A DNA stretch of 64,000 bases from Eledone cirrhosa. Lineage: Eukaryota. The translations under genes were made by a program, and so were the position numbers. Within the stretch, counting starts at the first letter, position 1. Each line of letters opens with the position of its first letter. Location of the stretch: assembly GCA_964016885.1 (NCBI GenBank), contig OZ024746.1, forward strand, positions 93,930,001-93,994,000. The letters run 5' to 3'. The notes below the pieces were generated by a model. It was not told the DNA's origin. It saw only the letters and a list, made by a program, of their open reading frames with translations, and searched no databases. Of the stretch, positions 9,198-25,284 are shown in pieces.

Positions 9198-12100
9198 GGC
9201 GACATGTAGGAAAACGTATTATCGCGAACTCCATAAAGGTTTGTTGTTTTCAGTTGTTTTGAATTGCCAGTTATGGAGAATTCTTGTTGTTAACTGTTTA
9301 TAAGTTCATATATATTGCTTTCTGAAAAGAGCGCTCAATAATATTAGAGCCTTGAGCCCAAAATTTAAAGTTTATTTTGTCAAACAAAAAAGTGTGGACG
9401 GCATTCGCCTCCCCAAATCTAGCCAGCTGTCTCGTGATAGCAGCTCTAACATACACACTACTCCCACCACCATTGTGAACCTTGCAACAATTGCCCAAAC
9501 CGATAACGTTTTTGCTAACAGCAACAGCGGTCGCCAAAGTTTGCCACGTGCAGACGTAGACTTCCCGCCTTTGCCAATGTCTACTGGTGTTAAAGCCGCC
9601 ATCTCCACCACAATGTCGAAGAGTACATCAACTCCACTGACACCACCACCACCACCACAGCAACAACTGAAACAAAAAAATTATCTCGTGATTGCAAAAG
9701 GAATTCTCCCACGTCGAACACCACCACCACATCAATAACTGAAACAAAAAATAACAAAAATAACAATCGCAACAACAGCATCAACACCAACACAAAACCA
9801 AATGTCTGTTTTGCTAAAGCGGCGAACAAGAACGAAACGATTGAGGTAAGTCAGGAAGAACTGAATGAGGCCAGGCGAATGGTGAAGAAAAATGGTTACA
9901 TGTGTGTCGTTTGTGGCGAGAGAACCCACCTAAAGACTTTCTGTCCTCAAGGGAGGGCTAAAAAATTAAGGCCACCTCTCCTGCCCACCCCACTAACTCA
10001 ACCATCAAAACCAGTAGCAGAAATGGCAGCAGCAACAGTAGCAAGACCAACACCACCTACCGCGCCAGAAATAGCACCAGCGCATCCACCATACCACAAC
10101 CAATACCAACGCCTGTGGAGGGCATTCCACTCCACGCCCTCTCACAACTGGAGAAGGATTGTAACGAGGAAGAGGGGTGGGAAACTATATCTGGGAAAAA
10201 AAAGAAAAATACCCTCTCCTTAGAGGGCGAAACAAACGAACAAGAAAGTTAAGAAGCTACGCGACGACCTACCATCACCATCATCAACCCAACACCACCA
10301 ACACCAACAAGCGAACAGAAACAAACCCACAACAAATGCAAGCAAAATAAAGCAGCCAAAAACGATACACACTACACAGCATTAAACTTGAACAAGCATT
10401 CATTACATTACATCCAACACAACACCAGCATCACAGAGAAAAACTATACAACAGCCCAAAAATTCACACCACCCTCACACATACAAATCACTCGTATCAC
10501 ACAGAAAACATACACAACACTAAAATCAAAATTCCCCAAGGACATCGGAGATTTCCGACAGACACTTTCCAGGAGGATATATAAAGACATCCTTCCGGAG
10601 GGGGCCACAAACAGTCAGAAGGACGGATTAACCATCCTTCCTCCACAAGAACTGAGGTAAGTGGTCTTATCTGGTGTAAAAGCCTCGCAAACCTGCTCAG
10701 ACGTTTCCAACTGTCTGACTGGCACATTTGGAAATCCAGTCGGTACCTATGTGGACATAGACAAACCGCATCGGGTCATCCAGATCGTATCTAGATAGTG
10801 TAAGGAAATAGATAGTTGTAGCATAGGTTGTCCACAATTCAAAACAATCGACTACACAGACCACAAATTCGTGAACTGTGTGGTCGACTTAAATAGGCTT
10901 CATAGACGGGGACTCGGTTACTGGAAGCTAAACGCATCGTTGACAGCGCGCAAAGCCTACAGAGACCGGATTAGCTAACTAGTTAAGCGTGGGTTGACGA
11001 GGGCCATCGTCAAAAACAAATGGTGGTTTGCACTGAAAAGGGCGATTAGAATAGAGTCCATTAAGTTTAGTAAGGCGTTAACAATAGAGCAGAAGGAGAA
11101 CTAGTTAGAAAATTAGACGAGGCGCTTAATAAAGGCATCGCGATCGATTCTTCAACGCAAAGCACGAAGACTGCGTTGTCAGAGCTAGGGCGCGTGTTCA
11201 CTGAAACGAGGGGACGAAAGCCGTTCGATGGGCCTGAGTGGCGGGGGCACGTCGTGGCAACAAAGCCACGATTCGATCTTTGGAGGACCACGACGGGCGC
11301 ATGCTACTCGAACCCAAGCAGATGTGTGCGGCTTTTCAGCAGCACTTCACACAGCTGTTCCGGAGCAGCGGTGGGCCGGATCGCAGTATGGACTTTAGCG
11401 TCTACCTCGACAGACTGCCGCGGCTCTCGGCTACAGAGGCGGAGTGCTGCGAAAGGCTGATAACAGCCGCTGAAATATGGGTTGCAATGACTGACTGCAC
11501 GATGGGTAAATCTGGTTTGTATGGTCTGTCCTACGAGCTTTACGTACACATGCCAGACTTGTTCGGCGACCTCTGACGTCTACTGCAACTGGCTGCATAA
11601 CGGGAGAATTCCCAGCTCTGTGAGCCGAGGAGCAGTAGCGTTGTTGAGAAATGGCCCGAACAAGGGGGACAAGATATATAATTGCAGGCCCATAACTCTG
11701 CTAAACACAGAGTTCAAGATTTTGGCCAAGGTGCTAGCAAAGAGGTTGGTGCTTGTCGTCAGTGGTCTGGTGGGAAAGGCGCAGACATGCACCATTCCAG
11801 ACAGATCCATATACGACAACCTCCACCTCATGCGATACATCGTGGAGAGTGTAGCTAACGAACCTGGCACGGGAAGGGCCTTGATCAATTTAGATCAGTC
11901 GAAAGCTTTCGATAGGGTCGACCATTGTTATCTGGCGGCCGACTTTGGGCCCGTCTACAGAGGCTGGATCGCTGCCATGCACAGCAAAATTATGCGCTCG
12001 GTTCGCCAAGGATGTCCCCTCTCGTCCCTGTTGTACCTATTGACTTTCGTGCCACTACTGCACAAACTGGAGATGTTGAGGGGCGTCCCGCACGAAATAG

Positions 12101-13707
12101 GACACGGGAGAACCGTGTCAGCATATGCCAACGACGTCACCGTAGTGGTGTCGAATGCCAAACACATCGAGGCGATCGACACTACACTAAGAGAATACGA
12201 GGCGGTGACAGGAGCAATGATTAACCAGGAAAATTCAGTGGGCCTGCAGCTCGGCACCTGGAGAGGCAGGTCCATGCCGTCCAACAGCGTCATCGGACGC
12301 TGGACGGACCGGTAAAATTGTTAGGGGTCTGGTTCGGTCCGGACCTCCAGACGGACAGAAACTGGGACGAGTTGACGAGTAGGGTGGTCTCTCTCACCCA
12401 GAAATGGGCCGAGAGGAAGCTATCGCTAAAAGGTCGAGTGGAAGTGGCGAACCTGTACATCACGTCCGTCATCTACTACCGCCTGACCGTCGTTCCTTGT
12501 CCTAAGCCTCGATTGACTGCTTCGGAGCATTTGCTCTTTCGCTTTTTGTGGAAGGGACGAGCTCTGATCGTCAGGCGGTCCGTTTGCTGTCAACACCCGC
12601 TACGTGGAGGGCTGGGTATGCCGTGGCTGATGATGCGCAGACATGCGCTCAGGCTACGGCATCTCCACCTTTTCCTCGACGGTGATCAGATGTGGACGCC
12701 GTTTGCTAGACGCATTTTTCCTCAGCTCGTCTCCTTGACGGAGCTGCAGTCCTGGGTCAAGCGAAGACCGAGAGGGAGTTTGGAGATTGGAATATCTTCA
12801 GGCGCTTACAGCCCTCGACCAATCGGGGAATGCGATCGGTGGAAACTCCACCTTGACGTTCTGTAGAAGGTTAGTGGAGGGAAAGAGCGACGACGTCCTT
12901 GGGGAGACTCTGTGCGTCGACGAAAATTAACTAGCCAATCTCTTCGGGAGAAGTGTCGGGCCGGGGCCCATGGACAACTTCCAGAAATCCCTGGCTTGGC
13001 AGTGCTACCGAGGAGCTTTGCCAGTTCGGGATAAACTCTACAGGCATGGAAGTGCCGTCAGCTGGGCCTGTTCGAAATGCGCGCAGGGCGACGAAACCGT
13101 TCTGCACGCACTCGTCCAGTTCGAGCTTATCGAACACCTGCTGTCGCGTGTAGGATGGGTCCGGCTATCAGCTGAGTCCATCGTGAGGATTGCCCCGCCA
13201 TCTTCCTTTAGCCAGGGAGGGCAGGCAGTTTTTATCGACCTGGTGGCCATGGCGAAAGAGGTCTTGTGGTGGACGCGTTTGAAAGGGCTGATGACGAGCA
13301 CTTACCTCTTCGGTGATGCCCTGATTAACTTTTTCAAATTTAATTTGAAAAAGAAAATCAGGGTGGAGAGGGAAGGGCTCTCTTCCCAGCAATTTGTTGA
13401 AAGATGGGTGAGAGAGGCAAGAATGGATGAGTAAATGGGCTTGCTCTGAGTATGCACCTGTAAACTGGAGGTGGAAAACTGGGAAAGGGCGCTTGCCCTG
13501 GTGGTCAGGTTCACCGTGGCTTTTTTAATGGGCTTTCTCTACGAGTGTCCCTCGGAAGTCTCTCCCTTATTGGGTAATTTTCTTTGTTTCTTTCTTTTGT
13601 TGTCGTTTCCTTTGTTTTTTCTTTACACGCAGAAATGCCCATTTGTACCGTCCTGTACTGTCCTTAATGTTACAGTTAATGTCAACCCTCGTGGTTAATA
13701 AAGAAAA
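9198..13707 (+). mobile_element. Near full-length decayed Tx1/L1-clade LINE
   Basis: ORF1 remnant with CX2CX4HX4C knuckle (CVVCGERTHLKTFC), ORF2 remnants, T-rich 3'UTR and AATAAA. 7-bp direct repeat CATTATT at 9191-9197 and 13708-13714. Confidence 0.9.
10660..13434 (+). pseudogene. Tx1-like ORF2 (partial APE, reverse transcriptase, C-terminal Zn finger), frameshifted
   Basis: TDH and GYWKLN motifs; RPITLLNTEFKILAK, LDQSKAFDRVDH, RQGCPLS, YAND (mutated YADD), LGVWFG, LSLKGR, CSKC...ETVLH. Multiple stops and frameshifts. Confidence 0.9.
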
Positions 13708-13959: not shown

Positions 13960-14526
13960 CGGAGTCGTTAGAACTTCGGTGTTCTGGTGGAGTAGTTAGG
14001 TCGTCGGTGTTCTGGCGGAGTCGTTAGGTCGTCGGTGTTCTGGTGGAGTCGTTAGGTCGTCGGTGTTCTGGTGGAGTCGTTAGGTCGTCGGTGTTCTGGC
14101 GGAGTCGTTAGGTCGTCGGTGTTCTGGTGGAGTCGTTAGGTCGTCGGTGTTCTGGCGGAGTCGTTAGGTCGTCGGTGTTCTGGTGGAGTCGTTAGGTCGT
14201 CGGTGTTCTGGTGGAGTCGTTAGGTCGTCGGTGTTCTGGTGGAGTAGTTAGGTCGTCGGTGTTCTGGCGGAGTCGTTAGGTCGTCGGTGTTCTGGTGGAG
14301 TCGTTAGGTCGTCGGTGTTCTGGTGGAGTAGTTAGGTCGTCGGTGTTCTGGCGGAGTCGTTAGGTCGTCGGTGTTCTGGCGGAGTCGTTAGGTCGTCGGT
14401 GTTCTGGCGGAGTCGTTAGGTCGTCGGTGTTCTGGTGGAGTCGTTAGGTCGTCGGTGTTCTGGTGGAGTCGTTAGGTCGTCGGTGTTCTGGCGGAGTCGT
14501 TAGGTCGTCGGTGTTCTGGCGGAGTC
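13960..14526 (+). repeat. 28-bp minisatellite (GGAGTCGTTAGGTCGTCGGTGTTCTGGY) x ~20
   Basis: Directly visible tandem array embedded in a SINE head. Confidence 0.95.
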
Positions 14527-23899: not shown

Positions 23900-24812
23900 C
23901 CTGGTAGACCTGGGATGGAAGAACAAAGGCTACGTATCCCGGGACCCCAAATAGGGACCGGTAGAGAGCAAACCATGGCAATTAGTAACTGGAACATTAC
24001 AACTCTTACAGTTAAGGAGCAGGAATTAGTGGAGGTGGCCAGATGCTACCGGCTAGGTATAGACAGGATTTCCCCACCAAAGTTCCGTTACTCTGGTACT
24101 GTAGATTTGGATGGAGAATGGAAACTCAACAATTGAGGTGTGGCGCCAGAGATGATTGCACTGGCGGGAATGGGAATGCTCACAAGCCCCAGGCTGTCAA
24201 AATGTGTTATGGACTGGATCCCACTAGCTTTAGCTAAAAGAAATATCACTGTGAGTCGTACAAGTTTATGCGCTAAACAAGGAGTCTGGATGCAGGTTCT
24301 TCCCTGAGGAAGTCACTGCAGCATTAAATGTTATGACTGAGTCATATATCTTAATTGTTTCTACTTTTGGCACAAGGCCAGCAATTATCTCAGTGTATTA
24401 CTGGTACTTTATTTTATCGACCTCGTAAGAATGAAAGGCAAAGTTAACCTTGGCGGGATTTGAACTCGGACCATAAAGGGTCGTAACTCTTTGCTGCAAA
24501 GCACGGCGTCCGACCCTCTACTCTACTGATGGTAGACTTCAATGCACATGTTGGCACTGACCACCTGACATGAAAGGAGTGATTGGAAGGAACGGCGATC
24601 CTGATCTAAATACAAATGGACGGGCCTTATTAGACTTCTGTTCTTGTAATGGGTTATGAACACCTTCTTCCAGCATAGAGACATCCATAAATATACATGG
24701 TATAAAGGGAATCGAGGACAGAGATCAAAATTGATTTTGTTTTCTCTGATCTCATTGATTCTGTGCTGGATGTTCATGTTGAGACAGGGGCTGAGCTGTC
24801 AACTGACCACCA
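23900..24812 (+). mobile_element. RTE-like LINE 5' part (APE endonuclease remnant) interrupted by a minus-strand SINE at ~24352-24521
   Basis: NWNITTL..KEQELVE, VQVYA, DFNAHVG, MNTFFQH, YTWY, SKIDF and STDH motifs across frameshifts. Confidence 0.8.
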
Positions 24813-24896
24813 CCAAAATTTTCTTTTCTGTTTGAATTTGGCAAAGCCGGCCATTTATCGCTCGTATACAGGAAACCGACTGGCCAGTCTGCTGAT

Positions 24897-24970
24897 ATGC
24901 AAATCTGGCTGATCAGTGGATCTGCTAATATGCAGATCTGACTGATCAGCCAGTCTGCTAATATGCAAAT
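24897..24970 (+). promoter_or_regulatory. Three octamer motifs (ATGCAAAT, ATGCAGAT, ATGCAAAT) at exact 33-bp spacing
   Basis: Positions 24897, 24930 and 24963; conserved in the copy at ~61660-61740. Function is inferred. Confidence 0.5.
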
Positions 24971-25038
24971 CAGGCCGATCAGACACTGTGCACTTTTGAA
25001 AATAGCATATATTTTCTCTAGCTCTGACAGTTTGGCAG

Positions 25039-25104
25039 GTGAACAGTGAGCTGTACTGATGAAGGGTGATACCCAGAAACATTAGTGACTGCAGTTCTGT
25101 TCAC
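25039..25104 (+). ncRNA. Type I hammerhead ribozyme (retrozyme copy A; cleavage triplet mutated to GAC)
   Basis: GUGAACAG-u-GAGCUGUA-CUGAUGA-A-GGGU-gau-ACCC-A-GAAA-CAU-ua-GUG-AC-UGCAGUU-CUGUUCAC. Bulged stem I of ~15 bp. Confidence 0.8.
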
Positions 25105-25284
25105 AGGTCAATACAAGAGCAAGAATGAAGTGTTCATTCTACTGACATGGCTATAAAATTGAGGGTTGTTTGCAAACTTGCAAACGAATCGAATGTTATT
25201 ATTAATATTCGAAAAACTCAGATTACATTTATTGTATTCACCCATGTAGAGCGAAATTTTCTTTTATATATATATATATATATA

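Follow-up and report, generated by a model that had tools for sequence, protein, structure and literature searches.

A 438-nt hammerhead-bearing repeat of Eledone cirrhosa shows the insertion anatomy of a Penelope-like element

Two permuted copies of one short repeat

Two copies of a 438-nt sequence, each with a hammerhead-like motif, occur in a 64,000-nt stretch of the Eledone cirrhosa genome (contig OZ024746.1, positions 93,930,001 to 93,994,000; hereafter the window), and begin at different points of the same unit. What kind of element leaves circularly permuted copies, and is a circular RNA needed to explain them? The original prediction, made from the letters of the window, was of a candidate retrozyme whose copies would be left by reverse transcription round a circular or multimeric RNA.

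Both copies are present where they had been described, at 24816-25265 on the forward strand (copy A) and 61401-61901 on the reverse strand (copy B), and they are 94% identical (374/398 positions in the main block, and 90/99 in a second, permuted block). We number positions in the unit (q) as window positions minus 24815, following copy A, and call an arm any same-strand run of unit sequence at one locus. The different starting points are also correct, copy A beginning at q1 and copy B at q356. That each copy is one unit plus a terminal redundancy is true of copy A, which spans q1-450 (438 nt and 12 redundant nt); copy B has a redundancy of 43 nt with one mismatch, but carries in addition a 20-nt tandem duplication. 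The unit is non-coding, with a GC content of 39%, and no ORF of at least 150 aa was found at either copy, the frames elsewhere in the window being of low complexity. The features of the two loci are as follows.

24816..25265, forward strand: copy A, a single arm running from q1 (5' end) to S2 (3' end), with 16 differences from the family majority
24883..24982, forward strand: long hairpin built from three internal repeats of 33 nt
25039..25104, forward strand: type I hammerhead of copy A; core at 25056-25062 and 25076-25079, triplet at 25087-25089 reading GAC here and GUC in the family
25191..25215, forward strand: AT-rich hairpin holding the SINE insertion site (~25198) of many other copies
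25226..25237, forward strand: S1, first fixed 3' end of family arms and putative first reverse transcriptase (RT) start site
25238..25265, forward strand: 'tail' of about 30 nt, running up to S2, the second of the fixed 3' ends
25266..25285, no strand: (TA)n tract bordering copy A on its 3' side, putative target
59850..61111, reverse strand: broken, 5'-truncated coding element near copy B, Penelope-like (Pfam silent); a neighbour, with no parentage to the unit implied
61345..61400, reverse strand: fragment of another hammerhead repeat, family Y, which is unrelated to the unit and to which copy B is joined at its 3' end
61401..61901, reverse strand: copy B, 501 nt, composed of q356-438, q1-398 and the 20-nt duplication; preceded by (TA)n and with an atypical 3' end
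61530..61595, reverse strand: copy B hammerhead (type I), with an intact GUC triplet and a single mismatch in stem II; predicted cut between 61545 and 61544

By eye, the translations around copy A read as two opposed, broken LINE-like fragments, at 24560-24815 (+) and 25286-25740 (-), and the broken frames at 9594-13434 (+) resemble those of a non-LTR retrotransposon. The window also contains a long (CAC)n tract and minisatellites of 28, 39 and 99 nt (27362-31822, 13961-14526, 44301-45721 and 51949-52434).

A homogeneous family of several thousand insertions

In searches of the 3.0-Gb genome for exact matches, a pattern of 44 nt from the core occurred 760 times and a 17-mer 2,011 times, and the reversed controls not once. 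A similarity search that scores the best candidates only gave 3,099 candidates. The junction at the tail matched exactly at 1,366 empty and 505 SINE-filled sites. From these pattern counts, we estimate a family size of about 4-5 thousand insertions, whose copies have a median identity of ca. 95% with the majority sequence. The loci analysed below are the first among the matches listed, mostly from a single contig (C1), and constitute a positional sample rather than the whole family. Contigs assembled from sequencing runs of unspecified kind carried majority alleles identical to those of the genome family, and offered neither cross-species covariation nor any sign of expression. An ORF with RT and GIY-YIG, as in autonomous Penelope-like elements (PLEs), is absent, and the 438-nt unit closes on itself.

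Arms end at two fixed sites and are variably truncated at the other side

The great majority of distinct arms (233/270) end at one of two sites situated some 30 nt apart, S1 (q409-423) or S2 (q430-460). The same was true for 35 of 44 arms from a set picked by the ribozyme alone, which is unbiased for 3' ends, and several of the remaining nine are SINE interruptions. The 37 arms of the 270 that end elsewhere include the type of copy B. A microsatellite, usually (TA)n, follows within 30 nt in 215 of the 233 S1/S2 ends. The 5' ends, by comparison, are spread over the whole unit.

Many insertions consist of two arms in opposite orientation, amounting to 58 of the ca. 95 insertions in the set picked by the tail. 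Among 103 head-to-head pairs found, 24 were set aside for an atypical end; of the other 79, with both ends at S1/S2, 74 combined one S1 with one S2 end (P = 4e-17). Terminal inverted repeats with two fixed ends, as in MITEs or DNA transposons, were absent. Mapping of start and end points in the sampled loci reproduced the variable 5' starts and the lack of terminal inverted repeats that the original prediction had anticipated, but the 3' ends were fixed. Since these lie at two start sites and only the 5' ends vary, the permutation corresponds to 5' truncation from fixed starting points, and the proposal that it was left by free copying round a circle does not hold. Copy A is then an ordinary arm starting at S2; copy B, whose 3' end is atypical, runs there into another repeat. 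Telomere-like TTAGGG repeats occur at or near element junctions in two loci (L047 and L191).

The arms of this family display the insertion footprint published for PLEs, which is why we consider that it is very probably a non-autonomous PLE, or non-LTR retrozyme: a new family of a class that is already known. The earlier description of a non-coding, hammerhead-bearing retroelement of the non-LTR retrozyme kind that spread by reverse transcription is in this respect supported.

The predicted hammerhead is intact in the family majority and damaged in both window copies

The majority sequence forms all 22 modelled pairs of a type I hammerhead, one per unit, with a stem I of 8 + 7 bp around a 2-nt bulge, a stem II of 4 bp and a stem III of 3 bp; the GUC triplet occupies q272-274, and the cut is predicted before q275 (between 25089 and 25090 in copy A). 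Aligned to this fold, copy A has an intact stem II and copy B an intact GUC, as had been noted; conversely, the triplet of copy A lacks its U (GAC), and stem II of copy B contains a mismatch. The family majority combines a core and a stem II that are both intact, which neither window copy does. The fold itself is not the predicted minimum: it reaches -19.9 kcal/mol, and a hairpin in which the core is sequestered by pairing with loop III reaches -26.4 kcal/mol (a gap of 6.5 kcal/mol), with a bulge at q272-275. Additionally, A.A closes stem II in 198 of 210 rows, where hammerheads usually have G-C according to the published description (PMC4209133), and Rfam gave no hammerhead match at E ≤ 10 on the window or on either copy.

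Conservation of the core was evident in the family: the core is intact in 60 of 83 copies not picked by the ribozyme, and the catalytic bases accumulated 20 substitutions against 39 expected, about half of the background rate (empirical P = 0.005). The non-core bases of the centre and stem I mutate at the background rate, with 122 substitutions observed across copies in stem I and 115 expected. This suggests, from substitution counts, that the catalytic core is under selection. The differences in stem I between the two window copies do preserve pairing, as originally stated; however, the swaps are one-sided and stem I evolves at the background rate, so they are no evidence of selection.

5' ends accumulate at the predicted cleavage site

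Loci picked by their tail carry no bias for 5' ends; among the 89 at-risk arms in these loci, 21 stop at q273-284, against 3.6 expected. A stricter set, for which more duplicates were removed (from 139 to 130 arms) and one arm was reassigned by hand, yielded 20 of 130 arms stopping at q272-284 against 3.9 expected, with the mode at q275 and a single arm stopping in the next 13 nt. This interval ranks highest of all those of 13 nt, and none out of 2,000 constant-hazard simulations reached its count. Stops at the cut affect both classes of arms (S1, 8/42; S2, 12/40) and are seen again in arms that go round the unit once more, with 6 of 14 at-risk arms ending there on the second round (pooled sets; P = 4e-5 to 2e-3). 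Smaller excesses of 5' ends appear at q285-297, the foot of the alternative hairpin, and at q4-25; the latter comprises 10 arms, of the class of copy A, lies near the T-rich S2 on its second encounter, and could reflect a transcription start, a roadblock or microhomology. There was no comparable pile-up at a longer hairpin, q80-150. Family Y showed no excess of stops at its own cut, with 10/100 compared to 6/90 and 15/84 in the next bins.

It seems to us somewhat more likely than not that the ribozyme cut its templates in vivo; a structural stall could mimic the pile-up, because the bulge of the alternative hairpin falls at q272-275. Together with the under-mutated catalytic bases, the pile-up is indirect evidence for RNA templates that had been cleaved and were in part linear.

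Tandem and inverted arms, some of them possibly from two RNAs

Twenty of 139 arms exceed one unit, extending up to ca. 1.9 units; 68 cross q275 once and six cross it twice. Genome-wide there are 36 loci with two ribozymes, as compared to 2,011 cores, and neither window copy is such a dimer. No third ribozyme was found in the 30 annotated loci of these 36, where the longest arm is about 820 nt; from the truncation rate, an estimated two or so trimers would be expected. Indels at the cut site are not in excess in arms that cross it (3/136) and linkage holds across the site, so we do not favour template jumping from end to end at this position. The dimers clustered on contig C3 (C3:17745000-17755000, L283-L285) were rejected as a source array, since they belong to a 2-kb segmental tandem duplication present four times.

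Subfamily alleles are common to the arms of one insertion more often than expected, both in tandem (422/487 versus 329 expected) and in inverted arrangement (759/875 versus 594), which could also be produced by contemporaneous sources. Private variants are shared in 11% of cases by tandem arms and in 8% by inverted arms, compared to 2% for random pairs; and 9 of 52 tandem duplicates differ at two or more diagnostic sites. In three insertions, the arms differ at four to five linked sites, which suggests that they derive from two RNAs. The deficit of substitutions in the core implies that templates passed on roughly half of the variation; this conflicts with the 8-11% sharing, and no simple model fits both.

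A proposed model for mobilization, and the alternatives

We propose that a borrowed PLE reverse transcriptase-endonuclease would copy the non-coding unit into (TA)n tracts. The protein, probably a dimer, would nick both strands of the tract, and one cDNA would be primed at S1 and its counterpart at S2, in some cases from two separate RNAs; both cDNAs would be truncated at random and then joined through their 5' ends. The ribozyme would cut a minority of template sites (on the first round, around a quarter of them), with the enzyme consequently running off at q275, whereas templates left uncut, or rejoined at the cut, would give the partial tandems. Stops on the second round require a 5' end, absent from a closed circle; with the low sharing of private variants between tandem duplicates (11%), they speak for many of the templates having been linear or nicked. 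A purely linear cycle, in turn, only shortens copies and provides no selection for an active core, which makes some rejoining step plausible; the arms longer than one unit, together with core selection, may leave room for a circular step. In its fullest form, to which we give about equal weight for and against, the genome would hold a fossil record of ribozyme activity within a Penelope cycle, in which about a quarter of templates are cut, on both rounds, the core is under selection, an RNA that is cut and rejoined, or nicked and held by stem I, is the propagating intermediate, and a dimeric enzyme contributes one start site per subunit.

A circular route, in which dimeric copies are cut to 438-nt monomers, ligated and reverse-transcribed round the circle by a PLE enzyme, we regard as doubtful as the main pathway. 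It would account for the 20/139 arms that exceed one unit, for the 68 that cross the cut without an excess of indels (3/136) and for the 36 two-ribozyme loci; core selection would be most easily explained if the inherited core had to cut, the unit as a circle folds at -167 kcal/mol (z = -10.6 versus 40 shuffles, inflated by internal repeats), and mussel retrozymes of 350-390 nt are described as abundant circles (PMC7229834). Nevertheless, a closed molecule has no 5' end, and stops at the cut occur on the first as well as on the second round; private variants are common to tandem duplicates in just 11% of cases, with 9/52 duplicates differing at two or more diagnostic sites; a third ribozyme is lacking in all 30 annotated loci of the 36 with dimers and the longest arm is of ca. 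820 nt, although only some two trimers are expected; and the fixed 3' ends explain the permutation without a circle. We find it likewise possible, but rather unlikely, that the hammerhead is a dead passenger of a plain non-autonomous PLE and that the pile-up reflects pausing of the enzyme where a stable hairpin forms. The alternative fold is indeed favoured, with its bulge at q272-275, and stops are raised at its foot (q285-297); Rfam is silent, the control family Y lacks a pile-up, and 8 of 9 Xenopus retrozymes reportedly did not cleave in vitro (10.64898/2026.07.22.740005). However, the edge of the stops is sharp, with the mode on the first base after GUC, the longer hairpin at q80-150 causes nothing comparable, and under-mutation is limited to the catalytic bases.

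That the copies are solo terminal repeats (pLTRs) of a coding PLE whose body was not sampled appears improbable. Most PLE insertions are described as 5'-truncated to the terminal repeat (10.64898/2026.07.22.740005), family Y and other local hammerhead repeats resemble solo terminal repeats, and our genome search scores the best candidates only; but arms that extend beyond S2 or upstream of q1 continue as the same unit, which closes at 438 nt, and no ORF-bearing continuation was found in the fetched loci. A MITE, a SINE or a satellite would also be short, non-coding and of high copy number, and many of the insertions are palindrome-like, but such an identity is scarcely credible: the inverted arms are variable, 5'-truncated copies and not terminal inverted repeats, their 5' ends vary, no tRNA gene was called, and there are no long arrays.

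Relationship to retrozymes and Penelope-like elements

Read as a non-autonomous PLE, the family is like the metazoan non-LTR retrozymes, as these are described (PMC7229834; 10.64898/2026.07.22.740005), in having a non-coding unit with one type I hammerhead, a GC content lower than 45% (39% here), partial tandems, thousands of copies and coexisting PLEs, which the same sources propose as the mobilizer of retrozymes. It differs in that the unit, of 438 nt, is longer than the published invertebrate range of ca. 170-400 nt (PMC7229834), and in that arms are dispersed and of at most ca. 1.9 units, instead of forming long arrays. Unlike in most metazoan retrozymes described, the core is predicted to be blocked by self-pairing, and we found no pLTR relative for the unit. 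The survey of retrozymes covers 35 genomes, with no mollusc among those described (10.64898/2026.07.22.740005).

As reported, insertions of PLEs include partial tandems and an inverted, 5'-truncated copy, with a tail of 30-40 bp usually on one end (PMC8557442; PMC3846280); this tail was traced to two internal RT start sites, and the protein is predicted to be a dimer (PMC11167929). The unit shares with endonuclease-bearing PLEs (PMC8557442, PMC3846280, PMC11167929) the two 3' ends ca. 30 nt apart with the tail on only one of them, the inverted, 5'-truncated arm, the partial tandems, the (TA)n targets, in which Hydra and Naiad elements also occur (PMC8557442), and the location of the hammerhead upstream of the start sites. 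In contrast to them, it has no ORF, and its hammerhead is not of the minimal kind, with a stem I of 15 bp and a stem III of 3 bp. For the purified Anolis PLE, ribozyme cleavage was described as dispensable in vitro, with no RNA reads ending at the cut (PMC11167929), whereas here the genomic 5' ends mark the predicted cut. Non-autonomous Chlamys elements such as MRC1 (PMC8557442) are likewise non-coding PLE derivatives, forming pseudo-LTRs and head-to-tail copies; nonetheless, those resemble an autonomous family at their 3' end and most are said to lack a canonical hammerhead, which the unit does carry.

The literature that we searched contained no description of the 438-nt family or of 5' ends at the cut site; Repbase, Dfam and the supplements of papers may list the family. 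The words ribozyme and hammerhead are absent from the main text of the Octopus vulgaris repeat annotation. The role of hammerheads in PLEs has been called unclear (PMC8557442), and a short, homogeneous family with thousands of copies makes the geometry of transposition countable, including the use of one site per arm (74/79), run-off at the cut site and core selection. Insertion anatomy, and not phylogeny, here supports the published idea that PLE enzymes mobilize animal retrozymes, and the 438-nt unit offers a compact substrate for studies of cleavage, circularization and priming.

Candidate partners and neighbouring repeats

The coding family represented near copy B, which we take to be PLE-like from its RT-like and endonuclease-like motifs, has 60,640 candidates in the genome. 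A 760-aa ORF used as PLE reference had no match in Pfam or PDB, so that the PLE label rests on those motifs. Members of the family near copy B (L061-L104) show an asparagine-rich linker, a minimal hammerhead in the terminal repeat and TA-joined ends; indeed, several coding PLE-like families in the genome are abundant and have hammerheads, two ends and TA targets. In a non-exhaustive search, we did not find any sequence common to the unit and a coding element, either among the 44 loci of the family near copy B or in the families met in flanks. The former was rejected as a parent, because its 44 loci share only a 17-nt match at chance level. Family P, another coding PLE-like family with two ends ca. 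66 nt apart, is often nested in the TA tracts of the unit (L282, L268, L200, L142 and L002); it was also rejected as a partner, because its hammerhead and tail are unrelated to those of the unit, with which it has no more than the TA tracts in common. Likewise, the upstream flanks of 65 solo arms did not contain any common partner arm.

Family Y, with 1,925 exact matches, was examined in 70 loci (L286-L355), and has two TA-joined ends and inverted arms; pieces of it lie in the window at 61345-61400 (-) and 51659-51714 (-). Its arms stop at a wall situated 27-50 nt upstream of its own cut (64 of 69 at risk), just after an AG that may be a splice acceptor or a transcription start. The fusion of copy B to family Y would have arisen by template switch or by deletion. 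A further short repeat, X, also targets TA and has inverted arms and two ends (L115, L141, L187, L190, L213 and L093).

A SINE with 78,055 exact matches to a 27-mer occupies one exact site of the unit, at ca. q383 (equivalent to window position 25198), which is filled in 505 and empty in 1,366 exact junctions (27% filled). These insertions (L105-L134, L022, L043, L055 and L058) show varied 5' truncation and duplication, and are sometimes stacked two or three deep. We rejected the possibility of a SINE that had captured the tail of the element, because the SINE lies inside the unit in 30 out of 30 junction loci, varies in truncation and duplication and generally targets ATTAT(T). The site looks like a hot spot at the DNA level, and the copies of the unit that are filled are slightly older, with a median identity of 91.8% as compared to 94.8%.
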